64,000 nt of DNA from an uncultured Acidimicrobiia bacterium (GTDB lineage: Bacteria; Actinomycetota; Acidimicrobiia; Acidimicrobiales; AC-14): assembly GCA_963836205.1 (NCBI GenBank), contig CAWIIV010000024.1, forward strand, positions 96,001-160,000. The letters run 5' to 3'. The position numbers and the translations under genes are program-made. This document shows, piece by piece, positions 50,615-64,000 of the stretch. The stretch's first letter is position 1. Every line of letters begins with the position of its first letter. Below the pieces are notes generated by a model. It was not told where the DNA came from. It saw nothing but the letters and a program-made list of their open reading frames with translations, and ran no database searches.

Positions 50615-50652
50615 GTCTGTCTTTCATCTGCTCAAGAATTGAGGAAATCGAC

Positions 50653-50682
50653 TTGCGAAGCAAACGTGTGTTCGACTATAAT
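50653..50682 (+). promoter_or_regulatory. Promoter (TTGCGA-N18-TATAAT) with LexA/SOS-like box GCAAAC-GTGT-GTTCGA in the spacer; probably leaderless
   Basis: Box at 50660-50675 resembles the actinobacterial TCGAAC-N4-GTTCGA consensus; ATG begins 7 nt after the -10. Confidence 0.7.
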
Positions 50683-50689
50683 CGTACCT

Positions 50690-51967
50690 ATGGGCGAGTG
50701 CTCAGAGAGTGAGGCCAAGGCGGTCCGGTTGGAGGCCGAGATCGCCGAGGTGTGCGGGATGATCAATGCCGCTACCGCTCGGTTGGTTCGGCTTCTGGGT
50801 GAGGTTTTGGCGACGGGGTCGTGGGAGGGTGCGGGCATTCGCTCGCCGGAGCAATGGGTGGCCTGGAAGTGCGGGGTCGGTCCGGCTCGGGCACGGTCGT
50901 TGGTGGCGATGGCCCGGCGGCTCCCGGAGTTGCCCGAGACTCGAACCTCGTTCGAGGCGGGCGAGCTGACGGAGGACCAAGTGGCGGTCATCGCCCGTCG
51001 TGCACCTGCGTCGACCGATGCCGAGGTGGCCGAGCTCGCCCGGCAGGCCACCGTGTGCCAACTCGGGCGTGTCCTCAATGGATACCGCTTCGCCGAGGAA
51101 TCCGAGACGACCAAGGCCCAGCCGGCGGCCGAGCAGCCGGCTCCGGAGGTGCCCGAGGAGCAGCGGCGGGTCAGCTTCGGCTACGACGACGACGGCGGAT
51201 GGCGGCTGTCAGCGGTGTTGCCGGCCGACGAGGGCGCGCTCTGGGAACGGGCGCTGACCGAGGCGAGGGAGTCGTTGTTCCGGGCGCAGCAGTCCGACGA
51301 GCACGACCGGCGGATCGCTGTGGGGTGGGCCGACGCCCTCGTGGCGGTTGCCGACCGGAGCCTGGCCGAGGGTGCCGCCGTGCGGCCCCACCGCGACCGG
51401 CATCTGGTGATGGTCCACGTCGGAGCGAGCCCCAGCGGTGCTGTCGGGGGCCATCTGCACCTCGGCCCCGAGTTGCCTGCCGGTCTGCGGCAGTACATCA
51501 GCTGCGACGGGCGTGTGCGGGCCGTCTTCGAGGCGAGTGGCACGCCGGTCAGCGTCGGCCGGTCGTATCGCACGGTGCCCGATCGCACGCGTGCCGTCAT
51601 CGAGGAACGAGACCGCGGGTGCCGGGTGCCCGGTTGCGATCGTAGGCGGTGGTTGCACGTCCACCACATTCGCCATTGGGAGGATGGCGGGCCATCCGAT
51701 ACTCCCAATCTTCTGGCCCTGTGCTCGTTCCATCACCGGCTTCTCCACCGGGGCGGCCTCAGGATAACGGGGAATGCCGACGAGCCCGACGGGCTGATGT
51801 TCGCCGATCATCGCGGGCGGCGGCTTGCCACCAACGGTCGGCCGATACCGCCGAATGGTTCGTTCACCGACGCCGCCCGCCACCTGGGCATCCCCGAACC
51901 AAGCTGGAGCCCTCCATCCGGCGAGCGCCACGACCCCCGGGCCGTGTACTTCAACGATTCCCCGTAG
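50690..51967 (+). CDS. DUF222 (13E12-repeat) HNH endonuclease
   Basis: Helical N-terminus; ERDRGCRVPGC, HHIRHWEDGG, NLLALCSFHH. Confidence 0.88.
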   Translation: MGECSESEAKAVRLEAEIAEVCGMINAATARLVRLLGEVLATGSWEGAGIRSPEQWVAWKCGVGPARARSLVAMARRLPELPETRTSFEAGELTEDQVAVIARRAPASTDAEVAELARQATVCQLGRVLNGYRFAEESETTKAQPAAEQPAPEVPEEQRRVSFGYDDDGGWRLSAVLPADEGALWERALTEARESLFRAQQSDEHDRRIAVGWADALVAVADRSLAEGAAVRPHRDRHLVMVHVGASPSGAVGGHLHLGPELPAGLRQYISCDGRVRAVFEASGTPVSVGRSYRTVPDRTRAVIEERDRGCRVPGCDRRRWLHVHHIRHWEDGGPSDTPNLLALCSFHHRLLHRGGLRITGNADEPDGLMFADHRGRRLATNGRPIPPNGSFTDAARHLGIPEPSWSPPSGERHDPRAVYFNDSP

Positions 51968-52518: not shown

Positions 52519-55500
52519 TCACTTCCGCAGCGCCATCCGGTGGGCGACCGACGCCGCCTCGACCCGGCTGACGACGTTGAGCTTGGCCAGGATGTGGGAG
52601 ACGTGGACGCTCGCCGTCTTCTCGCTGATGAAGAGGGTGTTGGCGATCTGGCGGTTCGACGCCCCCTCGGCGATGAGGTCGAGCACCTCCCGCTCGCGGG
52701 ACGTGAGGCCGAAGGGGGCGGGTTCGGCCGGCGCGGCGGCGGCGGCCCCCGACCCGTCCCCGGCCGCGTCGTCCGCCGGCGACTCGACCACCGCGATCCG
52801 AGCCCGGGTCGCCAGCTGCTCGATCTCGGCCTGGAACGGCGCCGCGCCCAGAGCCACGGCTGTGGCGTGGGCCGACCGGAGCAGGCGGGTGGCGACGGCC
52901 ACCCCTCCGCCCTCCCGCAGGTAGAGGGTCGCCTCCGCCCCCCGGTAGCGGGCGTAGGCCGCCGGATAGGGCTGGCCCACCGCGTCCCACGCGGCGGCGG
53001 CGTCGACCCACAGGTGGGGGGCGGGGGTGCCCTCCACCCGGGCGTGCTCGGCCGTCGCCAGCCGCTGGTAGGCGTCGATGATGCCGGCGTAGGCGAAGGG
53101 CAACAGCGACGACGCCGCCACCATCTGGGCCATGTCGGACATCAGGTCGGCGGCGGTTGCCAGGGCCGACGCCAGTTCCACCGGCGAGTGCCGCGCCCGC
53201 GCCCGCTCGGCCCGGTCGCCGTGGGCCCGCAGGCCGTGCCAAAGGAGCGGGGCCCCGAACCAGGGGTTGTCGGTGCCGCCCAGCGCCTTCAGCCCGTCCT
53301 CCACCGCGTCGCAGGCCTTGTCGAGGTCGCCCTGCCACATGGCCAGCCCCGCGGTGAGGGTGCTCAGCGGCGCCCGGTACTGGGGCGCGAGGGCCCGGGC
53401 CGACAGCGCCCGGGCGGTGTCGAGGTCGGCGGCGGCGTCGGCGAACCGGCCCCGTCCCACCGACATCCGGCCCCGGGCCAGGTACAGGTCGATGGCCGCC
53501 GTCCCGCTCGGCCGCAGGGCCATGGCCTCGTCGAGCAGAGCGTCGGCCTCGTCCCACCGCCCGAGCCGGAACAGACCGTTGGCTGCCGCCGCCAGCAGGG
53601 ACACGCCGTGGACCCGGTCGATGCCCAGGGAGCGGACCCGTCGCAGGCCCTGGGTGGCGGTGGCGACGGCCTCGTCGACCCGGTTGAGGGGACCGGACAG
53701 CAGCTCCGACAGGCTGAGATAGGCGCGGCCGACGTCGTCCGGGCGCCCGTCGTCCTCGAGGATGCGGATGGCCTCCCGGAGGTGGGCGATGCCGCTCTCG
53801 TCCTCCCCGAGCAGGACCAGGTCGGCGCCCAGGGTGGCCAGGGCCTGGCCCTCGTAGGGGCGGGAGTCGAGGCTGCGGGCCAGGGCCACCGCCTCCTCGG
53901 CCTGGACCCGCGACTCGCGGTACCGGCCCGCGAGCATGAGCGCCTGGGCCACCGACGCCACCACCCGGGCCCGTTCCGCCACCTGGCCCGCCCCCGCGCC
54001 CACCAGGGCGACCGCCTCCTCGTAGGCCACGAGCGCGGACTCGGTCTCGCCCGCGGCCCACAGGTAGCGGCCGAGGGACTCCTGGAGCAGGCCGGCCGCC
54101 ACCGGGTCGACGGTGGGGTCGACGCCGGACAGGGCCTTGCCGACGAGGATGCGAGCCCGGTCGTCGTCGCCCGCCAGGTGGGCGGCTTCGGCGGCCCGGG
54201 CCCGCAGCGTGGTGCGGTCGCAGCCGGCGAGACGTTCGGGATCGCGGGCCCGGCTCCAGAGTTGAAGGGCCCGCTCATAGTGGCTCTGGGCTTCGGCGAA
54301 GCCGTGCAGGCCCTGGGCGACGACCGCGGCCTCGACCGCGGCCGGCACCGCCCGGTCGGCGTTTTGGGCCGCGTACCAGTGGTAGGCCACCTCGGCCACG
54401 TGCTCGCCGGGGCTGTCGGCCAGCTCGGGGTGGAGGCTGAGCGCTTCCGCGTAGCAGGCATGGAGGCGGGCCCGTTCCTCGAACAGCAGCTCGCCGTAGG
54501 CCACCTCCCGCTGCAGGGCGTGGCGGAAGCGGTAGGTGCGGCGGTCGGAGTCGAACACCAGGAGCTGGTGGTCGATTGCTTCCCGGAGAGCGTCGTCGAG
54601 GGCGTCGTCGGCGATGCCGGTGGCCGCTCCCACCAGCCAGTGGGCCACCTCCCCGCCACCGACCGCGGCGGCCCGCAACAACCGCTGCGACGCGGGCGAG
54701 ACCACGCCCAGGCGGGCGGTGAGCATGTCGTGCAGTGTCAGGGGCAGACCCTGCTCGTCGCCCTGCTCGGCGGTGGCGAGCAGCTCTTCGGCGTGGAACG
54801 GGTTGCCTTCGCTTCGGCGCCAGATGGCGTCGACCAGCTCGGGCCGGGGCGGCTCGCCCCGGATGCCGGTGAGCTGCGCCACCAGCTCGTCGCGGTCGAA
54901 GCGGCCGAGCTCGAAGCGGTCGACCCGACCCCGCCGGTAGAGCTCGGCCAGGTACCGCCGGAGGGGATGCCGGCTGGGCAGCTCGTCGCTGCGATAGGTG
55001 ACGACCACGAGCACCGGTTCGTTCATGAGGTTGACGAGGAGGAAGGTGAGCAGGTCGCGGGTGGAGCTGTCGGCCCAGTGGGCGTCCTCCACCACCAGCA
55101 GCACGGGCGCCCGCTCCCCGAGCCGGCCGAGGACGTCACGCACCGTCTCGAACAGCCGCGCCCGCGACGTCGGCCCCGCGGGGCCGCTGTCCTCCTCCGG
55201 CTCGAGCGTCCGCCGCAGCTCGGGGACGAGGCGGGCGATCTCATGGGCGCCCGGCCCGAGCACGTCGGCCCGTTCGGAGCCCGAGGTGGCCCGCATGAGG
55301 TTGCGGAGGGCCTCCGCGATCGGGCTGTACGGCAGCCCGTCCTCGGTGGCCTCGATGCAGCTCCCGACGAGGACCCACGCCCCCGCCGCGGAGGCACGGC
55401 GGGCGAGCTCGCCGACCAACCGGCTCTTGCCCACGCCCGCCTCGCCGCCGACGATGACCGCGTTGGGCTCCCCCGCCGCGGCTCGGTCGAGGGCGGCCGA

Positions 55501-55560
55501 GAGCTGTTCCAATTCCTGCGTCCGCCCGAGGAACGGTGCGCTGAGGACTCGGCCAGGCAC
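52519..55560 (-). CDS. LAL-type regulator (AAA ATPase, helical repeats, LuxR HTH)
   Basis: GEAGVGKS, VVEDAHWAD, GNPF, LTSREREVL...SNRQIA...HVSHILAKL. Confidence 0.92.
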   Translation of the reverse strand: MPGRVLSAPFLGRTQELEQLSAALDRAAAGEPNAVIVGGEAGVGKSRLVGELARRASAAGAWVLVGSCIEATEDGLPYSPIAEALRNLMRATSGSERADVLGPGAHEIARLVPELRRTLEPEEDSGPAGPTSRARLFETVRDVLGRLGERAPVLLVVEDAHWADSSTRDLLTFLLVNLMNEPVLVVVTYRSDELPSRHPLRRYLAELYRRGRVDRFELGRFDRDELVAQLTGIRGEPPRPELVDAIWRRSEGNPFHAEELLATAEQGDEQGLPLTLHDMLTARLGVVSPASQRLLRAAAVGGGEVAHWLVGAATGIADDALDDALREAIDHQLLVFDSDRRTYRFRHALQREVAYGELLFEERARLHACYAEALSLHPELADSPGEHVAEVAYHWYAAQNADRAVPAAVEAAVVAQGLHGFAEAQSHYERALQLWSRARDPERLAGCDRTTLRARAAEAAHLAGDDDRARILVGKALSGVDPTVDPVAAGLLQESLGRYLWAAGETESALVAYEEAVALVGAGAGQVAERARVVASVAQALMLAGRYRESRVQAEEAVALARSLDSRPYEGQALATLGADLVLLGEDESGIAHLREAIRILEDDGRPDDVGRAYLSLSELLSGPLNRVDEAVATATQGLRRVRSLGIDRVHGVSLLAAAANGLFRLGRWDEADALLDEAMALRPSGTAAIDLYLARGRMSVGRGRFADAAADLDTARALSARALAPQYRAPLSTLTAGLAMWQGDLDKACDAVEDGLKALGGTDNPWFGAPLLWHGLRAHGDRAERARARHSPVELASALATAADLMSDMAQMVAASSLLPFAYAGIIDAYQRLATAEHARVEGTPAPHLWVDAAAAWDAVGQPYPAAYARYRGAEATLYLREGGGVAVATRLLRSAHATAVALGAAPFQAEIEQLATRARIAVVESPADDAAGDGSGAAAAAPAEPAPFGLTSREREVLDLIAEGASNRQIANTLFISEKTASVHVSHILAKLNVVSRVEAASVAHRMALRK

Positions 55561-55621
55561 GATGCCAGTATTGCCGGAAAGCGGTGGCGCGAAGCCGGGC
55601 GCCTCGCTAGCGTGCCCGCCC

Positions 55622-56362
55622 ATGACAACTACGGCGGATGTTGTGGAGCATGTGGGTACGATCGCGGAAGCGCTCGACCGCATGGCGGAGATCGGCGTGT
55701 TGGTGGAGTTCGACCCGGACGACCCCGGGCCTCCCGGGTCCCAGGACGGGCTGGTGTGCTTCAACCACCTCTACACCAAGGTCACCAAAAGGGTCGACGA
55801 TCTGGTGAACGAAGGCGGGTTCGGCGACGGCAAGTTCATGACCGCCCTCGACGTGGCCTTCGCCAACCGCTACTTCGAGGCGATCGCGGCGTGGGAGGCC
55901 CGGCGGGTCGACGACCTGCCTCGGGTCTGGGGGGTGCTGCTCGACCGTCGGGACGTGCCCGACATCGCGTCGATCCAGTTCGCGGCGGCGGGCGTCAACG
56001 CCCACATCAACCTCGACCTCGCGATCGCACTGGTGCACACCTGCAACCAGCTCGGAGTCCCCCTCGGCGCCGGTGACCAGCGGGCGGAGTACGAGAAGAT
56101 CAACGAGATCTTCGGCGACCTGTTCGCGATCTTCCGGGCGGAGTTCACCCAGGGTCGCTACGAGCACATTGACCAAGGCAAGGTCGAGCGCCATCTCGAC
56201 CGCGTCAGCCACTTCGTCGTCGACAAGGCCCGGGACGTGGCGTGGGAGAGCGCGGAGGAGATCTTCGAGCAGATGGAGCGCAGCAAGCGGCGCGCCGACC
56301 GGTTCACCAACCGGCTCGACACCATCTTCGGGTTCGCGGCGCGTGGACTGCTGATCCGCTGA
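55622..56362 (+). CDS. DUF5995-like protein
   Basis: DGLVCFNHLY, LDVAFANRYF, GVNAHINLDL. Confidence 0.75.
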   Translation: MTTTADVVEHVGTIAEALDRMAEIGVLVEFDPDDPGPPGSQDGLVCFNHLYTKVTKRVDDLVNEGGFGDGKFMTALDVAFANRYFEAIAAWEARRVDDLPRVWGVLLDRRDVPDIASIQFAAAGVNAHINLDLAIALVHTCNQLGVPLGAGDQRAEYEKINEIFGDLFAIFRAEFTQGRYEHIDQGKVERHLDRVSHFVVDKARDVAWESAEEIFEQMERSKRRADRFTNRLDTIFGFAARGLLIR

Positions 56363-56685
56363 CCCTCCTGGGGTCCTAGCCCCTCCGTTAGCTTCGGCGC
56401 AGGCCATTCCGGTCGATGCCGGCGGGCAGAACCGGCCTCCTTCGAGCCAGGCGTCGAGGTCGCCGTGGGCGTGGTGGGCGGTGCCATGGATCCCACGGAG
56501 CCGGGTGGCGCGCCCACACCGGCCGCCGACGAGCGAATGGCGCGAGTGGTCCCTGCCGGGGCCCAGTAGCGCCGCTCGTTCGGAGAACCGGCGCCGCCCT
56601 GCGCCGAGCGAATGCCACGAGTACCCCCTCTGAAGCGGGGTCGTGGCGAACGCTCGGCCCATGCCACTCGCTCGCCCCGCGACCC

Positions 56686-57468
56686 CTACTTGCCCTTCTT
56701 GACCGCGGCCAGGCTTGCTTCCAGCGCGGCCATGAGGTCGACGACCTTCGGCGCGTCGTCGGCGGCTTCCTCGACCACGATCTCCTGGCCGGCGGCCTTC
56801 TGCTCGATGAGCTGGAGGACGCGCTCCCGGTAGTCGTCCTTGTACTTGTCGGGGTCGAAGTCGGTGGTGAGGGAGTCGATGAGCTGGCGGGCCATCTTCT
56901 CCTCCCGCTCGGTGACTTCGATCTCGTCGCCGGGGACGTCGAGCTCGTCGAGCGGGTTGACCTCGTCCGGGTAGAGCATCGTCTCCAGCACGAGGGCCCG
57001 GCCCAGGGGCCGGATGGCGGCCAGGTACTGCTTGGTGCGCAGGACGACCCGGGCGATCCCGACCTTGTTGGTCTCCTGCATCGCCCGGCGCAGCAGGACG
57101 TAGGCCTTGGCCCCGCCCTTGTCGGGCGCCAGGTAGTACGGGTGGTCGTAGTAGATGGGGTCGATCTGGTCGAGGTCGACGAAATCCTCGATGTCGATCG
57201 ACCGGGTGGCCTTGGGGTCGAGGGCGTTGAGCTCCTCGGGCGAGATCATCACGTAGGTGTCGGGGCCCAGCTCGTAGCCCTTGACGATGTCCTCGTAGGG
57301 GACCTCTTCGCCGGTGGCGGCCGACACCCGCTTCTGCTTCACCCGCGACTTGCTCTTGGCGTCGATCTGGTGGAACCGGACGTCCTTGGGGGACACCGCG
57401 CTGTAGAGCTTCACCGGCACGTTCACCAGCCCGAAGCTGATGGCGCCGGACCACATCGAACGGGCCAC
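56686..57468 (-). CDS. ku: NHEJ Ku protein
   Basis: WSGAISFGLVNVPVKLY, IVKGYE, VVDLMAALEASL. Confidence 0.95.
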   Translation of the reverse strand: MARSMWSGAISFGLVNVPVKLYSAVSPKDVRFHQIDAKSKSRVKQKRVSAATGEEVPYEDIVKGYELGPDTYVMISPEELNALDPKATRSIDIEDFVDLDQIDPIYYDHPYYLAPDKGGAKAYVLLRRAMQETNKVGIARVVLRTKQYLAAIRPLGRALVLETMLYPDEVNPLDELDVPGDEIEVTEREEKMARQLIDSLTTDFDPDKYKDDYRERVLQLIEQKAAGQEIVVEEAADDAPKVVDLMAALEASLAAVKKGK

Positions 57469-57496
57469 GGTTACCTCCTGCCCACAGATCGTAGGG

Positions 57497-58924
57497 TCAA
57501 CCGTTCTCCTTCGGAGTCATACGGCGGATCGCGTCCAACGCCCGGGCCAAGGCCTCCGGTGAGTCGGCGCCGCCCACCACCGTCCCGCCCTCGCCGACCT
57601 CCTCGACGTCCTGGTCGACGCGGACGCTGTCGCCACCCACAACGCCGATGATCGTCCCGTCCACGCGGTCGGCGTCCTGGTCGACGGCGACGGCCCCGGT
57701 CGCCCCCGGCTCGACCACGGCGCCCAGGACGAGGCCGCCGGCGGACACGTTGCCGACCCGCTGGCGGTAGAGGCGGGCCGATCCCGCCACCGCCTCCTCC
57801 CGGGCGGCCCGCGCCGAAACCGGCTCGAACAGCCGACCGCCGTGATCCCGCAGGTAGAGGACGGGGACGGCCCAGTCGCGGTCGTCGGCGTGGTCGCCGG
57901 TGGACACGGTGCGGATGGCGGTGCGGCCGAGGGCGACGGCCTCGTCGACGGTGAGTCCCGCCACCAATGCCCGGTAGAGGCCGCCGGCGAAGGCGGCCGC
58001 CCGCCGGTCGCCGATGGTGAACTGCATGGCGACCACCGCGGGGACGCCCCGCTGGACGAGGGCCGCCGCCGCACCCGCCCATACGTTGTGGTCGTCGCGA
58101 CGGCCGGTGTCGCAGGCGCCGAGGACTGCCAGGCGGACGCCCTTGGCCTGCACCATCTCCGCCACCCGCGCCGCCGGGACCACCTCGGCCGGGCCGCCGG
58201 CACCGCCGCCCCCCGCGAACACCAGCCCCCCGTCGGGGGTGCCGTGGCCGGCGAAGTGGAACACGTCCGCCCCCGCCGCCAGCGCCTCCAGCACCGAGGC
58301 CTGCCCGGCGTCGGCCACGAAGTCGGCGGTGACGCCGGCCACGCCGTCGAGGGCGGCGGCCAGGGCCTCCCGCTCGGCGGCCAGCGAGGGCAGGGGCGGG
58401 TACCCCTCGGGACTGGCGGTCGCCACCACCACCCGTCGACCGGCGGCCGCCTCGGCCGGCGCAGGCAACGGCGTGGCCACCGCCTGGTGGCGGACGATCG
58501 AGATCCGGGGGTCGAGGGCCAGGAACCCGGTCGCGTCGGGCTCGCCCGTGTGCCGGGCGACCCATGCCAGCTCCCAGGGGACGTCGGCCAGCTCGTCGGC
58601 CAGCCGGAGGCGGACCCGGAGGCCCTCGTCGTCGGCCAGCCGGGCCAGGCTGGCGTCGAACAGGCGCCGGGCACCGTCGGGGAGGAGCAGGCCGCCGAGG
58701 ATCGCGCCCAGCTCGATCTGGGCCCCGAGGTCGTCGTCGATCTGGCGGCGGTCGAGCCAGCCGATGCGAGGGGCGAGGTCGGCGGGCATCTTCACCCGCT
58801 CCTCGCGCTCGCCCTCGCCCGCGGGCGACTCGAACACCCGCACCCCGAAGGAGGCGATCAGCCCCTTCCGCCGCTTCACCTGGTCGGCGAGGACGACGAA
58901 GTCGAGGTAGCGGGTCAGCGGCAT
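57497..58924 (-). CDS. CHAT (caspase-like) domain protein with C-terminal QxVxxVxxGGxVVG repeats
   Basis: VPWE, HFAGHG (His), LGACDTG (Cys), VVAMQF, DWAVPVLY. Confidence 0.88.
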   Translation of the reverse strand: MPLTRYLDFVVLADQVKRRKGLIASFGVRVFESPAGEGEREERVKMPADLAPRIGWLDRRQIDDDLGAQIELGAILGGLLLPDGARRLFDASLARLADDEGLRVRLRLADELADVPWELAWVARHTGEPDATGFLALDPRISIVRHQAVATPLPAPAEAAAGRRVVVATASPEGYPPLPSLAAEREALAAALDGVAGVTADFVADAGQASVLEALAAGADVFHFAGHGTPDGGLVFAGGGGAGGPAEVVPAARVAEMVQAKGVRLAVLGACDTGRRDDHNVWAGAAAALVQRGVPAVVAMQFTIGDRRAAAFAGGLYRALVAGLTVDEAVALGRTAIRTVSTGDHADDRDWAVPVLYLRDHGGRLFEPVSARAAREEAVAGSARLYRQRVGNVSAGGLVLGAVVEPGATGAVAVDQDADRVDGTIIGVVGGDSVRVDQDVEEVGEGGTVVGGADSPEALARALDAIRRMTPKENG

Positions 58925-59967
58925 CGGGCCCGAACCCATCGACCGACGTCGGGCAGCCACCCGAGGGCCGCCAGGGGGGCGACGAAGCCGACCACCATGA
59001 CCACGCGGAACCCGGGCCGCAGCCATGGGAGCAGCAGTGCCACCGGCAGGGCCATGAGCAGGAGCAGGTGGAGGGTGCCCGCCAGCCGCAGTGACTCCGG
59101 CTCGCCGCCGGCAGCCACCGCGCCCGACAACGCCCAGCCCCCGGCCGCGCCCAGCCCGAGCACGGCCAGCAACGTCGCCGCCCGGGCCCCGAAACCGTAT
59201 GCGAGCCCGCCTCCGGCCCACGCCCCCACGACCAGCGCCACCAGCCCGACGTGGAGCACCCACGCGTAGACCACCGTCAGCTGCGGGAGTGAGATCCGCC
59301 CGTCGTCATCGGCCCGGGCGCCCATGGCGATGGCGGTCGACCAGGCCCCGCAGCGGGCGTCGTTGGCCAGATCGCGAAGCCCGCCGTGGACCCCGTTGGC
59401 GAGCACGATGAACACCGTCCAGAAGGCGAACAGCCACCACGTGAGCGCCGTCCACGGCCCCCGGACGGCGGCCCCGTAGAGGAACAACGACGCCCACCCC
59501 AGGCCCTGGGCCACGTCGAGCAGCCACGGCACGGGCGAGCGCTTGCCCCACCCGTCGTAGACGGCCATGAGGGCGAAGGCCACCACCAGGGCGGCCAACG
59601 CCCGTCCGCCCCCGTCCCCCGAGGCCACCGCCACCGCCAGGCTCGCCGCCGCCCCGGCCAACGCCAGCGCCAGCGCCACCCCTGGACCGACCGAGCCCCG
59701 CACGAGGGGGCTGACCGCCCGGCGGGGCTCGTGGCGGTCGATGGGCAGGTCGACCACGTCGTTGAGCAGGTAGGCGAACAGGTGGTAGCCGAGGGCGACC
59801 GCCACCAGCACGCCGGCCGTCCCCCACGGCAACGACGGCGACACCGACGCCGCCCCCAGCAGGGGCATGGCGAGCGTGCCGCCGAGGGCCGACAGCCGCA
59901 CGAACAGCCCGAGCGCCTGCAACCGCCGGTGGCGGCGCACCACCGGCGCCCACGTGGTCCGGGTCAC
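58915..59967 (-). CDS. UbiA-family prenyltransferase
   Basis: NDVVDLPID, SPLVRG, second Asp motif RDLAND; about 9 TM segments. Confidence 0.85.
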   Translation of the reverse strand: MTRTTWAPVVRRHRRLQALGLFVRLSALGGTLAMPLLGAASVSPSLPWGTAGVLVAVALGYHLFAYLLNDVVDLPIDRHEPRRAVSPLVRGSVGPGVALALALAGAAASLAVAVASGDGGGRALAALVVAFALMAVYDGWGKRSPVPWLLDVAQGLGWASLFLYGAAVRGPWTALTWWLFAFWTVFIVLANGVHGGLRDLANDARCGAWSTAIAMGARADDDGRISLPQLTVVYAWVLHVGLVALVVGAWAGGGLAYGFGARAATLLAVLGLGAAGGWALSGAVAAGGEPESLRLAGTLHLLLLMALPVALLLPWLRPGFRVVMVVGFVAPLAALGWLPDVGRWVRARCR

Positions 59968-62900
59968 GCGTCGGTCCACCGTTCGAGGCGGTAGTCGGCC
60001 TTCCGCAGCATGTCCAGCGGGCCGGGCGTGATCTTGCGCACGAAGGCTTTGGCGTCCTTGGCCGTGGCCAGGGCGCCCAGGATCCCGGTCAGCAGCCCGA
60101 CCCGCATCTTGGGATGGAACAGCGCCTGGTGGACCCCGTTGTTGTAGAACCCGACCCACACCACGTAGCGCCGCACCACCTCCACGTCGCCCCGCTGGGC
60201 CACCAGCAGCCGCAGCCGGTCGGGGGCGCCGACGTCGCGCAGGAACAGGTCGACGGTGTCGGGGTGGAGGACTCTCATGGTGGCCAGGGTGGTGGCCAGG
60301 CTGTCCTCCACGGCCGGGTCGAGCAGCTGGGGGACCGACTCCCGCAACGTCTCCAGCACCGCCTGGGGATACGAGAAGCCGACCGGCGCCAGCCCCCGGA
60401 TGACCCGGTCGAGCAGGGCCGGATCGCCCCCGGCAGCCGCGCCCGACAGGAGCGTCCCCAGGTAGGTCATGGGCCCGCCCCGCTTGCCGTAGGCCAGCCC
60501 GAGGGGGAGGAGGTCGATCTCGAACGGGACGCTCGTCCCCCCGTCGGCGGCGAGGAACGCGGGCCGGTTCTCGTCCACGAACGTACGGGTGAGGTCCTCC
60601 AGCAACCCGACCCACCCGGTCGGTGCCTTCTCCACCAGCACCGCGAACGCCCACAGCGCCCACCGCCGCCCGTTGTCGTCGAGCCGGTCGAACAGCCCCC
60701 GGACGAAGGCGTCGGTGCCCGCGGGGTCGTGGAACGAGTGGATGGCAATCACCATCCCGCCCACCATCCGGGTCTGGGAGAAGGGCGACTGGAGGAGGGC
60801 GGCCAGGTCGTCGGCCCGAGCCCCCACGTCGGTGGCGGGGTCGACGAGCGGGACGACCCGGCCGATGGCCTTCCGGTCCGACGCGAAGAACCGGCGGGCC
60901 TCGTCGGGGCTGCTGAACAGGAACGTCTCCAGCAGGCGCTTCGCGTAGACCTGGGCCACCAACGGGGTGGCCACCTTCACCAGCGCCTTCACGTTCAGCA
61001 GGTGGAGCTTGAGCCGGTTGCGCAGCACCTCGTGCCAGAGGGCACTGGTCTGGGCCACCACGTCGGCCCGGTCGGGGTGGTTGACGTAGATCAGGATCGA
61101 CAGCCCGGCCAGGAAGTCGAGGACCAGGCGGTCGTTCTTGCGGAGGATCTGGCCGCTGATGGTGACCGTCGACGCCAGGTCGGTGAGGAGCTGCACCGGC
61201 AGGCAGCCGGGGTCGTCCGGCCGCCAGCGGAGGTAGGCGTAGAGGCAGGCCGCCTGGCGCACGACGTCGCGGCTGTCGACCGCCGCCCGCCGGAACACGT
61301 CGAGCGCCCCCGCGGCGGCGGCCGCCTTGAGGGCCACGTTCCAGGCGTCGGCCGATTGGGTGGCCAGCAGGCGGAGCATGGTGTCGAGCGCCCGCCGCCC
61401 GTTCGCCCCCCCGTCCTTGGCCGCCAGCTGCACCAGGGCCTCGGTGGCCAGGCCCCGCAGCTCGACCTCGGCTGCCACCGCCATCGTCTCCACCAGCCCC
61501 ACCAGCCGGTCCGGCCCACCGGGCGGGGGCGGGGCCAGGCCCACCTCGACCGCGGTGCGGACGTCGTCGTAGATCGCCGCCGGGCCGCCGGGCGCCTCCT
61601 GCTGGCGGGCCCGGAACCCGGGGTCGAGCACGACGTCGAACAGCTCGCCGGTGCGGGTGGCCCGGTCGGCGGGCCGGTCGAGGGCGCCCAGGCTGGCGGC
61701 CATGTGGCGGACGAGGTTGCGCAGGCAGTAGCCGTCGTCGCAGTTGGCCCAGTCACCACCCCACAGGTCGGCCCGCGCCCGCTGGTAGTGGCGGACGATG
61801 CGGTCGTGCTGCTTGGGCGGGGCCACGTAGAAGCGGTTGTCGGAGCCGCGGTCGTCGATGTAGCGGGTGGCCAGGAAGTCGGCCAGCGACCGGTGGTAGA
61901 GCCGCCACCCGCCGCCGCTGCCTCCACCTCCGGCGGTGCCGCCCTCGGGGGTCGGCTCCCACTCGGTGACCTGCTCCACCGATTGGAGGAAGCGGCTGAG
62001 GTCGTCGTCCTCCCACTCCAGCCAGCCCAGGAGGCGGTCGGCGGGGGCAGCCGGCAGGGCCACGCTGATGCTGCCCAGCAGGGGCTGGTAGCGCTCGCCC
62101 CAGGCTGGGCCCCGGTCGCGGTCGTCGAAGCCGGGGACGATGCGCTGGAGGTACTGGCGGTAGAGGTCGAACAGGCCGGTGGGCAGGTCGGCGGTGTCGG
62201 TGAGGGGACGGGTGCCCTTGGCCAGCTCGTCGAGCAGGAAGTCGATGAACAGGAAGTTCCCGGCCGCCTGCCGGGCCAGGCGCTCGACCACCGAGTCGAC
62301 GGTGGCCGGCGCCTCGATGCGGGCGGCCAGGCCGTCGGCGTCCAGCCGGGTGCGCACGAACCGGCGGACGTCGGCCTCGTTCGCCACCGCCCCGTCGCCG
62401 GAGGAGAGGTCGAGGTGGCGGACGTCGCCCCCGAACCCGTCCGTCAGCCGGGTCACGAGGGCCCGCTCGTTGCGGCTCGTGACCAGGAAGCGGACGTTGC
62501 CGGGCAGGCTGCCGGAGCGGGCCAGGAGCGACACGACCGTGGGCTCGGGGCCGCCGAACGCCTCGTCCACCCCGTCCACCAGGACGGCGAAGGTGCGGTC
62601 GGGGTGGGCCTCGGCCATGGTCCGCAGCGGCTCCACCACCCCCTGGGCGTAGCGGTCGCGGGCGTCGGGGATCTTGACGTCGAGGTCACCCACATGGCCG
62701 ACGACGGTGCCCTGGTTGACGCCCACCTCCTGGTGGACGAGCTCGGGCAGGTTGACCCGGAGGAAGGCGTCGGCGAACTCGGGGTGGCGGGCGGACAGTT
62801 GGTTGACCAGGCTGGTGACGAACCAAGCGGGGGTGATGTCGGCCCCGTCCTGGCCCCTGGTCATGCAGAAGCAGGCGGCCGACCACCCCGCCCGCACCCC

Positions 62901-63110
62901 TTCGAGGGCGGCGGCGTCGTCGGCCGCCGTTGGGGCCGGGCCCGCTCCCGCCAGCCAGGCGGCCAGCACCGACTTGCCCGATCCGGGCTCGCCGGTCAGG
63001 AGGAAGAGACGCTCGGACCCGGTGCCGAGCCACTCCGCCACCTGGTGCAGGGCCCACTCCCGGCCCACCAGGCCGGCCGCCTTCTGGCCGATGACGGCCG
63101 GGATGCGCAC
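59964..63110 (-). CDS. STAND/NACHT-like NTPase with helical C-terminal region
   Basis: VGREW, Walker A GEPGSGKS, Walker B VLVDGVDE, LVTSR, GNFLF, LYHRSLADFL. Confidence 0.85.
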   Translation of the reverse strand: MRIPAVIGQKAAGLVGREWALHQVAEWLGTGSERLFLLTGEPGSGKSVLAAWLAGAGPAPTAADDAAALEGVRAGWSAACFCMTRGQDGADITPAWFVTSLVNQLSARHPEFADAFLRVNLPELVHQEVGVNQGTVVGHVGDLDVKIPDARDRYAQGVVEPLRTMAEAHPDRTFAVLVDGVDEAFGGPEPTVVSLLARSGSLPGNVRFLVTSRNERALVTRLTDGFGGDVRHLDLSSGDGAVANEADVRRFVRTRLDADGLAARIEAPATVDSVVERLARQAAGNFLFIDFLLDELAKGTRPLTDTADLPTGLFDLYRQYLQRIVPGFDDRDRGPAWGERYQPLLGSISVALPAAPADRLLGWLEWEDDDLSRFLQSVEQVTEWEPTPEGGTAGGGGSGGGWRLYHRSLADFLATRYIDDRGSDNRFYVAPPKQHDRIVRHYQRARADLWGGDWANCDDGYCLRNLVRHMAASLGALDRPADRATRTGELFDVVLDPGFRARQQEAPGGPAAIYDDVRTAVEVGLAPPPPGGPDRLVGLVETMAVAAEVELRGLATEALVQLAAKDGGANGRRALDTMLRLLATQSADAWNVALKAAAAAGALDVFRRAAVDSRDVVRQAACLYAYLRWRPDDPGCLPVQLLTDLASTVTISGQILRKNDRLVLDFLAGLSILIYVNHPDRADVVAQTSALWHEVLRNRLKLHLLNVKALVKVATPLVAQVYAKRLLETFLFSSPDEARRFFASDRKAIGRVVPLVDPATDVGARADDLAALLQSPFSQTRMVGGMVIAIHSFHDPAGTDAFVRGLFDRLDDNGRRWALWAFAVLVEKAPTGWVGLLEDLTRTFVDENRPAFLAADGGTSVPFEIDLLPLGLAYGKRGGPMTYLGTLLSGAAAGGDPALLDRVIRGLAPVGFSYPQAVLETLRESVPQLLDPAVEDSLATTLATMRVLHPDTVDLFLRDVGAPDRLRLLVAQRGDVEVVRRYVVWVGFYNNGVHQALFHPKMRVGLLTGILGALATAKDAKAFVRKITPGPLDMLRKADYRLERWTDA

Positions 63111-63183
63111 CCGCTCGGTCGTGCCGCACCCCCTTTCGCCCGTCGGATCGTGGTTTCCGTCTGCGCCAGACAGACTACGGACC

Positions 63184-63771
63184 ATGCCGGAGCCGACGAC
63201 GCCGCCCGCCCTCGCCGACCTCAAGCGGGCCCTGGTCGAGATCATCCTGGCCAAGGGTCACCTGCAGCTGGACGAGCCGGTCAAGCTGGCGTCGGGCGAC
63301 TGGAGCAGGGACTACATCGACAACAAGCGGGCGTTCGCCCTCGGCTCCGACCTGCGCCTGGCGGGCGAGGGCCTGGTGGCGCTGGCCCGGGACGAAGGAT
63401 GGGATTTCGACGCCGTCGGCGGGCTCACCCTCGGGGCCGACCACTTCTCCCACGTTGTGGCCATCGTGGCCGACCGCTCCTGGTTCGTGGTCCGCAAGGC
63501 GGAGAAGGACCACGGGACCAAGCGCAGGATCGAAGGGGCGGCGCTGGGTTCCGGCGTCCGGGTCGTCGTGGTCGACGACGTCGTCACCCGGGGCGGGTCG
63601 ATCCTCGACGCCTACCACGCGGTCAAGGAGTCGGGCGCCGAGGTGGTGGGCGTGACCACCCTCGTCGACCGGGGCCCGGCCACCGCCGCCGTCTTCGCCG
63701 GCCTCGGCGTCCCCTACCGGGCCCTCCTCACCTACGCCGACCTGGGAATCGAGCCCGTCGGCGGGCCCTGA
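63184..63771 (+). CDS. pyrE: Orotate phosphoribosyltransferase
   Basis: LASG..S..YID, VRK..KDHG, PRPP motif VVVVDDVVTRGGS. Confidence 0.92.
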   Translation: MPEPTTPPALADLKRALVEIILAKGHLQLDEPVKLASGDWSRDYIDNKRAFALGSDLRLAGEGLVALARDEGWDFDAVGGLTLGADHFSHVVAIVADRSWFVVRKAEKDHGTKRRIEGAALGSGVRVVVVDDVVTRGGSILDAYHAVKESGAEVVGVTTLVDRGPATAAVFAGLGVPYRALLTYADLGIEPVGGP

Positions 63772-63775
63772 GCCG

Positions 63776-64000
63776 TCAGGACGACTGCGTGGCGATGACC
63801 CGGTCGTCGTCGGGACCGTCGTCGGTGCGGACGATCTCGGTCTGGGCGACGTCGAGAAACTCGGCGAAGGCGGCGTCGACCGCCGCCTGCAGGTCCAGGA
63901 GGGTCATGGAGGGCATCTCGTACCTCAGCGCCTCCAGGCTGTCCTCCACCGCCTTCAGCCGGTCGTGCCCCGCCTCCGACAGCGCCGCCGGCCCACCTGT
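63776..64000 (-). CDS. C-terminal end of an unidentified protein (runs off the window)
   Basis: Open frame ...LKAVEDSLEALRYEMPSMTLLDLQ...IATQSS*. Confidence 0.55.
   Translation of the reverse strand, partial: TGGPAALSEAGHDRLKAVEDSLEALRYEMPSMTLLDLQAAVDAAFAEFLDVAQTEIVRTDDGPDDDRVIATQSS

Follow-up and report, generated by a model that had tools for sequence, protein, structure and literature searches.

A STAND NTPase gene coupled to a UbiA-type prenyltransferase gene and a CHAT protease gene in an uncultured Acidimicrobiia bacterium points to a possible lipid-linked NLR-like signalling

The window analyzed in this study, a stretch of 64,000 nucleotides from an uncultured Acidimicrobiia bacterium (contig CAWIIV010000024.1 of assembly GCA_963836205.1), carries three adjacent genes for a STAND NTPase, a prenyltransferase of the UbiA superfamily, here called UbiA_A, and a caspase-like CHAT protease (Table 1). 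An initial annotation had described them as three overlapping minus-strand genes, and this layout was confirmed. The pairing of STAND and UbiA genes with swappable death-type effectors, which we followed through related loci, suggests that bacterial NLR-type immunity or death signalling has a lipid-linked branch not yet described.

The GTG start codon of the UbiA_A gene and the TGA stop codon of the NTPase gene share 4 bp (GTGA). With ATG 58939 as start codon, the CHAT gene overlaps the end of UbiA_A by 25 nt, and by 10 nt with the alternative ATG 58924. The G+C content around the three genes is 72-77%, and spurious long open reading frames (ORFs) occur in every frame of both strands. The three gene calls are trusted because of family matches and homologues of 70-88% identity elsewhere, not because of ORF length. 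The Ku gene starts 28 bp past the CHAT stop codon and is preceded by a GGAGG motif. A promoter and terminator scan gave nothing above shuffle expectation and no sigma-70-like site in the divergent intergenic region, and an Rfam scan of positions 56000-64000 gave no match.

Table 1. Genes, domains and neighbouring features, with positions in the 64,000-nucleotide window
Feature	Positions	Strand	Details
STAND NTPase gene	59964-63110	-	1048 aa; GTG start at 63110; Pfam and homologues
Nucleotide-binding oligomerisation (NOD) module of the NTPase	62121-63071	-	about residues 14-330; Pfam and local NOD model
C-terminal domain of the NTPase	59967-61526	-	about 520 residues; all-alpha, HEAT/ARM-like solenoid, sensor-like (predicted); tblastn, alignment, AlphaFold2
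UbiA-superfamily prenyltransferase gene (UbiA_A)	58915-59967	-	350 aa; PF01040, UbiA fold
CHAT (caspase-like) protease gene	57497-58939	-	480 aa; PF12770
CHAT domain	57857-58669	-	about residues 91-361 of the CHAT protein; PF12770
Divergent intergenic region between the NTPase gene and a plus-strand phosphoribosyltransferase gene	63111-63210		presumed promoter region
Ku gene	56686-57468	-	PF02735, 1.8e-57
ORF of 1321 aa	52111-56073	+	no Pfam family
Long ORF opposite the 1321-aa ORF	52519-55764
DUF222-HNH endonuclease gene	50639-51964	+	3e-24

The NTPase matched the Pfam models NPHP3_N (47.3 bits, cut-off 24.8; 3.5e-12) and AAA_16 (33.1 bits, cut-off 32.6; 9.7e-8) at residues 14-213, followed by a weak AAA_lid match at residues 247-317. 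The NACHT model reached 19 bits, under its cut-off of 26.7, and a local NOD hidden Markov model (HMM) scored 240 bits. The Walker motifs reported initially were found intact, with GEPGSGKS at residues 40-47 as Walker A (fitting GxxxxGK[ST]) and AVLVDGVDE from residue 175 as Walker B (fitting a hydrophobic strand plus D[GD]xDE). Homologues of the protein have 1026-1054 aa and 68-86% identity. As just 13 residues precede the NTPase domain, an N-terminally fused effector is absent, unlike in the relatives bearing CHAT, TIR or kinase domains.

No Pfam family matched the C-terminal ~520 residues of the NTPase. This domain is the part of the NTPase common to all UbiA-linked relatives, and its alignment (A2; 31 sequences from across phyla) showed a mean column identity of 52% with many invariant polar residues. 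Its conserved patches include LLPLGLAYGK and HxDxxD. The AlphaFold2 (AF2) model is a solenoid of 30 helices (pLDDT 89.4; pTM 0.89). Foldseek matches to this model were limited to ARM/HEAT solenoids at TM scores of about 0.2, and an ESM Atlas search gave weak HEAT-like leads with a recognition value of 1378, below the tool's benchmark of 2300. Judged by its predicted fold, the domain is a putative new member of the solenoid sensor class (HEAT/ARM-like). A profile of it collected 559 representatives at E <= 1e-3, 300 at E <= 1e-10 and 160 at E <= 1e-30, in which the domain stands nearly always at the protein end, while tblastn against 72,556 plasmids gave no match. A conserved C-terminal 'WT' motif of the NTPase was considered as prenyl acceptor and dropped, because it is non-terminal in many members and missing in the SIR2-type ones.

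The UbiA_A protein matched PF01040 with 56.4 bits (cut-off 34.2; 3.5e-15) and has many hydrophobic segments. Its Asp-rich motifs, noticed already in the initial annotation, are NDVVDLPID at residues 69-77 (fitting NDxxDxxxD) and DLAND at residues 199-203 (fitting DxxxD), and they are invariant in the family alignment (A1). Of 39 STAND-linked rows, 38-39 retain the residues N69, D70, D73, D77, D199 and D203, and the motif residues are also retained in 42 of 42 rows without a STAND link. The AF2 model (pLDDT 92.4) aligned by Foldseek with the solved UbiA-fold enzymes 6m31_A and 4od4_A at target-normalised TM scores of 0.72-0.77 (E about 1e-7); in profile searches against the PDB, solved UbiA enzymes were matched weakly (E >= 4.6e-5). 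The family scored below every NCBIfam subfamily cut-off (best 42.4 bits vs 269), the named subfamilies being 4-hydroxybenzoate polyprenyltransferase, DGGGP synthase, heme O synthase and DPPR synthase with their equivalog cut-offs. A protein search with the window UbiA returned its own small family of 61 matches, annotated at most as '4-hydroxybenzoate polyprenyltransferase'. UbiA_A appears to be a divergent, new UbiA subfamily and is predicted to be a catalytically competent membrane enzyme. Among five longer UbiA_A forms, no reliable STAND fusion was found.

The CHAT protein matched PF12770 with 108 bits (cut-off 24; 7.5e-31). The His/Cys dyad claimed for it was verified as H232 and C276, both unchanged in all 23 family members aligned, so that the protein is a predicted caspase-like (clan CD) peptidase. 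Its C-terminal ~100 residues were assigned to no family, and a phmmer search against the PDB gave two low-complexity matches at E about 0.006, taken as chance. Residues 10-383 align to residues 2-387 of fused CHAT-NOD-C-terminal-domain proteins with 36-45% identity. We read the separate CHAT gene as probably the N-terminal module of these fused forms, split off and moved downstream of UbiA.

For comparison, we used 80 loci from many phyla, obtained by a genome scan with the UbiA family alignment. In 38 of them, as well as in the window, an NTPase with the C-terminal domain of the window protein is encoded directly upstream of UbiA_A on the same strand (tblastn, in agreement with a local HMM); among the other 42 loci, L016 and L026 have too little upstream sequence for a decision. 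The loci derive from Acidimicrobiia and other Actinomycetota, Chloroflexota, a cyanobacterium, Gemmatimonadota and an alphaproteobacterium. The full STAND-UbiA-CHAT triad, for which the initial annotation had proposed a neighbourhood search, was present with UbiA in the middle in all seven closest loci (L001-L007, Acidimicrobiia-like metagenome-assembled genomes (MAGs); UbiA identity 56-85%). UbiA is thus kept between STAND and CHAT elsewhere, contrary to the refuting case named initially, and its pair with the NTPase extends over several phyla. The claim that the three genes form one unit was supported. In 27 of the 38 linked loci, the best tblastn high-scoring segment pair comprised the C-terminal half of the query alone, from about residue 464-594 on, and in the truncated L008 residues 915-1046. 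The 4-bp start/stop overlap of the STAND-UbiA_A pair recurs in L002, L049, L055, L071 and L072. Also, other STAND designs lie directly upstream of UbiA_A, namely TIR-NB-ARC-TPR in L062 (again with a 4-bp overlap), a TPR fragment in L076 and cyclase-AAA_16(-TPR) in L056, L058 and L077.

On a UbiA tree built by a quick method (81 UbiA_A rows and nine paralogue rows as outgroup, none omitted), the label 'C-terminal-domain NTPase upstream' changes nine times, with at least five changes forced by starred branches. The mean after shuffling of labels was 29.6 changes, and none of 500 shuffles gave as few as nine. The identity matrix of the C-terminal domain correlates with that of UbiA_A at a Mantel r of 0.93, a value reached in none of 2000 permutations; this indicates co-inheritance of the two, not co-evolution. 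Cross-phylum sister pairs such as L024/L044 suggest that whole STAND-UbiA units move horizontally, and one clade of seven rows (support 91) holds four output types.

Two database proteins appeared to join the partners in one chain. P0072, an apparent fusion of the C-terminal domain with UbiA, was discarded as read-through across a frameshift. P0106 reads NOD, C-terminal domain, linker and UbiA as one chain; this fusion is unverified, with an unconserved junction of 65 residues in a 5'-partial ORF, and may be read-through. In the MAG contigs L004, L006, L007, L028 and L061, the NTPase or UbiA match falls into two HMM pieces that lie in neighbouring frames, which suggests frameshifts or assembly indels, the source of at least one false database 'fusion' (P0072).

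The domains in front of the NTPase module vary among the relatives. Pfam searches covered 60 of 71 candidate upstream proteins (those of L002, L008, L035, L040, L042, L045, L051 and L057 were among the remainder), and the survey of N-terminal effectors comprises 30 linked loci, in which the C-terminal domain follows a NACHT/NPHP3_N module. Ser/Thr kinase domains were found in seven loci (L018, L019, L031, L033, L038, L043, L046), fused CHAT in four (L009, L010, L063, L072) and TIR in two (L024, L044), besides trypsin with NB-ARC in L014, an adenylate/guanylate cyclase in L055 and EAD7 in L050. No effector domain was detected in L001, L003, L005, L007, L012, L015, L021, L041, L049 and L071, of which L041 and L049 have long unassigned N-termini, and the fragmentary ORFs of L004, L006 and L028 gave no Pfam family. 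A separate CHAT gene downstream of UbiA was found in the seven closest relatives, and in L061 it lies downstream of a second UbiA gene; an apparent UbiA-CHAT-NUDIX fusion in L061 was rejected, because the second UbiA is in another reading frame within that long ORF, so that these are separate genes. Among the matches listed for the C-terminal domain, 42 of 150 representatives were scanned for N-terminal domains: 13 carry CHAT, ten TIR, four SIR2, three EAD5/7/8, two trypsin, and one each a kinase and a metallophosphatase; seven have the NTPase alone or no family, and in one (P0106, the possible fusion) UbiA follows in the same chain. As the effectors vary and the pair of STAND C-terminal domain and UbiA is constant, we regard the STAND sensor and UbiA as the conserved core and CHAT as one interchangeable output.

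Two of these loci show further arrangements. In L050 (4850-10493, plus strand), a gene for EAD7-NACHT-C-terminal domain is followed by UbiA_A and then by EAD7-TIR-FGE-sulfatase, the textbook layout of adaptor-mediated effectors. In L010 (9986-16796, minus strand), three CHAT paralogues of 484-493 aa lie past the CHAT-STAND-UbiA-UbiA cassette on the opposite strand, with proteins of ~390 aa without Pfam family after the first paralogue and between the first and second.

Further lipid-type enzymes accompany the pair in many loci. A second, DGGGP-synthase-like UbiA follows UbiA_A in 16 of the 38 STAND-linked loci (fused to UbiA_A in L028 and L055), a PPO/HpnE/CrtD-like FAD oxidase in seven and a methyltransferase in three (fused to UbiA_A in L008 and L015). 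In Chloroflexales loci, a kinase-STAND-UbiA_A unit is followed by a CrtO-like ketolase gene (1e-120). At the window unit, no adjoining CrtD/CrtI-type or CruF-type (PF04240) gene was found, the search for PF04240 being confined to part of the 64 kb. Around STAND-free UbiA_A, Caroten_synth (PF04240) adjoins in six loci (L011, L013, L020, L022, L027, L036), and P0253 is a UbiA_A-Caroten_synth fusion. Genes of the FA_desaturase family follow in L036, L039, L047 and L070, and further neighbours encode P450, ABC-transporter, UPP-synthase and CrtO-like ketolase proteins. From these neighbours, the UbiA_A family looks isoprenoid- or carotenoid-modifying, and it probably has an ordinary metabolic life as well. 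The STAND-free loci with Caroten_synth look like an uncharacterised carotenoid-modifying cluster. In L071 (11025-12923, minus strand), the opposite strand encodes a second UbiA_B-UbiA_A pair, a few hundred bases past the STAND-UbiA_A-oxidase cassette.

Antiviral STAND proteins are known under the Avs nomenclature, and for bacterial NLR-like receptors direct sensing of phage proteins has been described, besides one case of sensing via a chaperone. The UbiA-linked family resembles Avs and bNACHT proteins in having an N-terminal effector, an NTPase and a C-terminal repeat sensor, and in its effector repertoire of TIR, SIR2, protease and nuclease-like domains (accessible part of the preprint 10.1101/2022.07.19.500537; PMC13581612). 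It differs in that the C-terminal domain lies outside Pfam and PADLOC models, that a UbiA gene is the constant partner and that the window effector is a separate gene. According to the accessible part of the same preprint, bNACHT genes are rarely in operons, and those operons are poorly conserved (Kibby et al., 10.1101/2022.07.19.500537). The NTP-dependent conflict systems of multicellular bacteria with effector-associated domains (EADs; Kaur et al. 2020, PMC7159879; Kaur et al. 2021, PMC8195603) likewise join STAND NTPases to CHAT, TIR, trypsin and EAD adaptors and come from comparable organisms (Chloroflexota, Actinomycetota, cyanobacteria), and the EAD7-EAD7 pairing of L050 fits in here; a lipid-enzyme partner is not part of these systems as described. 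UbiA, prenyl, carotenoid and isoprenoid are not mentioned in the main texts of PMC7159879 and PMC8195603, nor UbiA, prenyltransferase or PF01040 in two supplementary files of PMC7159879. Also, UbiA or prenyl is not mentioned in the accessible part of the bNACHT preprint or in the 2026 STAND survey PMC13581612 (main text and six supplementary files). Full-text searches of open papers, part of which returned mostly off-target results, yielded none linking UbiA to STAND, NACHT or defence. The initial annotation had not recognised a membrane prenyltransferase in such a module from described systems, and this agrees with the PADLOC models and literature covered here, in which none was found. Its view that a STAND NTPase with CHAT is the architecture of NLR-like conflict systems was supported too.

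Two further comparisons concern the output and the enzyme. In SAVED-CHAT of type III CRISPR, a caspase-like CHAT is the switched output of an immune sensor as well; the window has no SAVED domain, CRISPR context or cyclic-oligonucleotide sensor, and the proposed activator is the STAND NTPase. C50-carotenoid clusters combine a UbiA-family lycopene elongase with a CruF-type hydratase and a CrtD-type desaturase. The same enzyme families occur beside UbiA_A elsewhere (Caroten_synth, FAD oxidases of the CrtI/CrtD/HpnE/PPO kind, CrtO-like ketolases), whereas such partners were not found at the window and UbiA_A lies under every NCBIfam subfamily cut-off.

The observed domain identities, intact motifs, conserved pair of STAND C-terminal domain and UbiA, and effector swapping describe a STAND system of the NLR-like kind, in which the sensor domain is new and the prenyltransferase partner looks obligate. 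For its working we tentatively favour, at somewhat less than even chances, a model in which the solenoid sensor of an NLR-like STAND switch reads an isoprenoid lipid that the UbiA of the same unit produces, with CHAT as output. The NTPase would be the switch, with its nucleotide-binding module and the HEAT/ARM-like solenoid as sensor, while the translationally coupled UbiA would make an isoprenoid-derived membrane lipid on the input side. The solenoid would read the presence, absence or altered form of this lipid, its putative ligand. A change of the signal, as by infection or by damage to the membrane or the isoprenoid pool, may then let the NTPase oligomerise and activate CHAT, presumably recruited in trans. 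Activated CHAT would cleave cellular targets, and growth arrest or death would follow, possibly as defence or programmed death. UbiA is placed on the input side because a constant NTPase-sensor-UbiA part with a variable output is the signature of an NLR-like switch.

Several findings weigh against this model. All comparison loci were found via UbiA, and the 42 remaining UbiA_A loci lack a link with the C-terminal domain, and many stand beside carotenoid-type genes. Local HMMs detected no second UbiA, FAD oxidase or methyltransferase in the 64 kb of the window, and the whole window clade (the window and its seven closest relatives) is without them, so that no lipid pathway is evident in the window. 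No EAD or other recognisable adaptor domain for recruitment in trans was found on the window NTPase or CHAT (Pfam, E <= 0.01). The defence or death role is one that we infer from architecture only. The window clade has a conserved synteny of phosphoribosyltransferase, STAND, UbiA, CHAT and Ku genes and no obvious defence island; recognisable defence islands were also absent from the flanks of 11 other STAND-linked loci (E <= 1e-12), which hold heterogeneous housekeeping, metabolic and unknown genes. Of the DefenseFinder/PADLOC check suggested initially, the PADLOC part gave no described system model for STAND-UbiA-CHAT and domain-level matches alone; the window NTPase had a weak mad8 match (0.005 over 33 residues) and the window UbiA none.

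Part of this evidence would suit an explanation in which UbiA is a protein partner of the switch, either a membrane tether or a 'guardee' watched by the solenoid, and its product is not the signal. The tight translational coupling of the STAND and UbiA genes, a solenoid fold typical of protein-binding repeats, the unverified single chain of P0106 and the lack of accessory lipid enzymes in the window clade agree with it. Sensing mediated by a host protein also has a precedent, namely bNACHT25, for which the accessible part of PMC12169576 describes phage sensing by way of the host chaperone DnaJ. The likeness lies in an NLR input that runs via a host-encoded protein, phage proteins not being recognised directly; DnaJ is an unlinked housekeeping chaperone, whereas here the candidate partner is a membrane enzyme encoded in the operon, the product of which may be the signal. 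A mere anchor needs no catalytic residues, yet they are kept in nearly every STAND-linked row, accessory enzymes in 16 of 38 loci favour a product, and the P0106 junction is maybe an artefact, as P0072 is. Because UbiA is catalytically intact and often accompanied by further lipid-type enzymes, we prefer the lipid-reading model and consider a tether or guardee unlikely. The carotenoid-type neighbours could instead mean that there is no conflict system and that STAND regulates or scaffolds a lipid pathway of the isoprenoid or carotenoid type, with outputs that tune physiology, such as the response to light or oxidative stress. The neighbours of STAND-free UbiA_A (Caroten_synth in six loci, desaturase-family, P450 and CrtO-like genes, the P0253 fusion), the Chloroflexales units, kinase and cyclase domains as ordinary signalling outputs, and the vertical inheritance and stable synteny of the window unit are on the side of this explanation. 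Against it, 32 of the 42 representatives scanned carry CHAT, TIR, SIR2, trypsin or EAD, which are domains of abortive-infection and death systems, a DNA-binding output was absent from all STAND proteins scanned, and the flanks of the 11 loci held no core carotenoid genes (E <= 1e-12). We regard it as distinctly unlikely.

The initial annotation had proposed a lipid/prenylation output or membrane effector. Read as UbiA being the output, for instance a lipid or prenylation effector or a membrane-damaging one triggered by the STAND-CHAT pair, this part was not supported. An intact membrane enzyme gene does lie between STAND and CHAT. However, UbiA is present with CHAT, TIR, kinase, trypsin, cyclase or EAD7 and also without a detected effector, and although one would expect an output module to be exchanged, UbiA is constant and tracks the sensor-like C-terminal domain (the Mantel correlation above), while the effector slot swaps domains. 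The idea is therefore the least consistent with the data, and we give it a low probability. That three unrelated genes are adjacent by chance or mere synteny is hardly credible. The Ku and phosphoribosyltransferase neighbours are conserved in the window clade too, so that local synteny alone cannot separate the unit, but the STAND-UbiA pair recurs in 38 of 80 loci in different phyla with different flanks, start and stop codons overlap, and unrelated STAND types are coupled to the same UbiA family.

A widespread family with its sensor locked to a membrane prenyltransferase would add lipid or membrane state to the inputs of such immune and cell-death switches. Many STAND proteins annotated as 'hypothetical' (160 clusters at E <= 1e-30) would thereby gain a function, and both a conserved sensor domain and a UbiA subfamily would be newly defined. 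The window provides a compact three-gene version of this family that is easy to test genetically. More broadly, and with considerable doubt, there may be an NLR-type receptor family in at least five phyla, with CHAT, TIR, SIR2, trypsin, kinase or cyclase outputs, the HEAT-like sensor of which is licensed by, or guards, a self-made, possibly carotenoid-derived isoprenoid UbiA lipid. If so, it would be the first branch of prokaryotic NLR immunity or programmed death to sense a lipid.

PADLOC gave further domain-level matches. In the relatives, the NTPase region matched Avs2 (weakly, up to 1e-19) and the effectors matched ThsA, TIR and kinase models; the window CHAT weakly matched the SAVED-CHAT model (2.1e-6), and neither the C-terminal domain nor either UbiA type had a match. 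The model C3a186 ('C-3',4' desaturase') matched the FAD oxidase of L015 (10167-11921; 9e-17), and C3a189 ('kinase') the kinase domain of L018 (4195-7854; 4e-31). A PADLOC candidate set may already contain a desaturase-kinase pairing.

Among the neighbours of the unit, Ku is 96-99% identical in L001-L005 and L007, versus 69-85% for STAND, UbiA and CHAT in the same six loci. Beyond Ku, the 1321-aa ORF has 57-66% identity to counterparts in L001, L002, L003 and L005; its strand assignment rests on tblastn alone, as a long ORF lies opposite. The DUF222-HNH endonuclease gene is an actinobacterial mobile-type element, and a 68% identical copy is present in L004.

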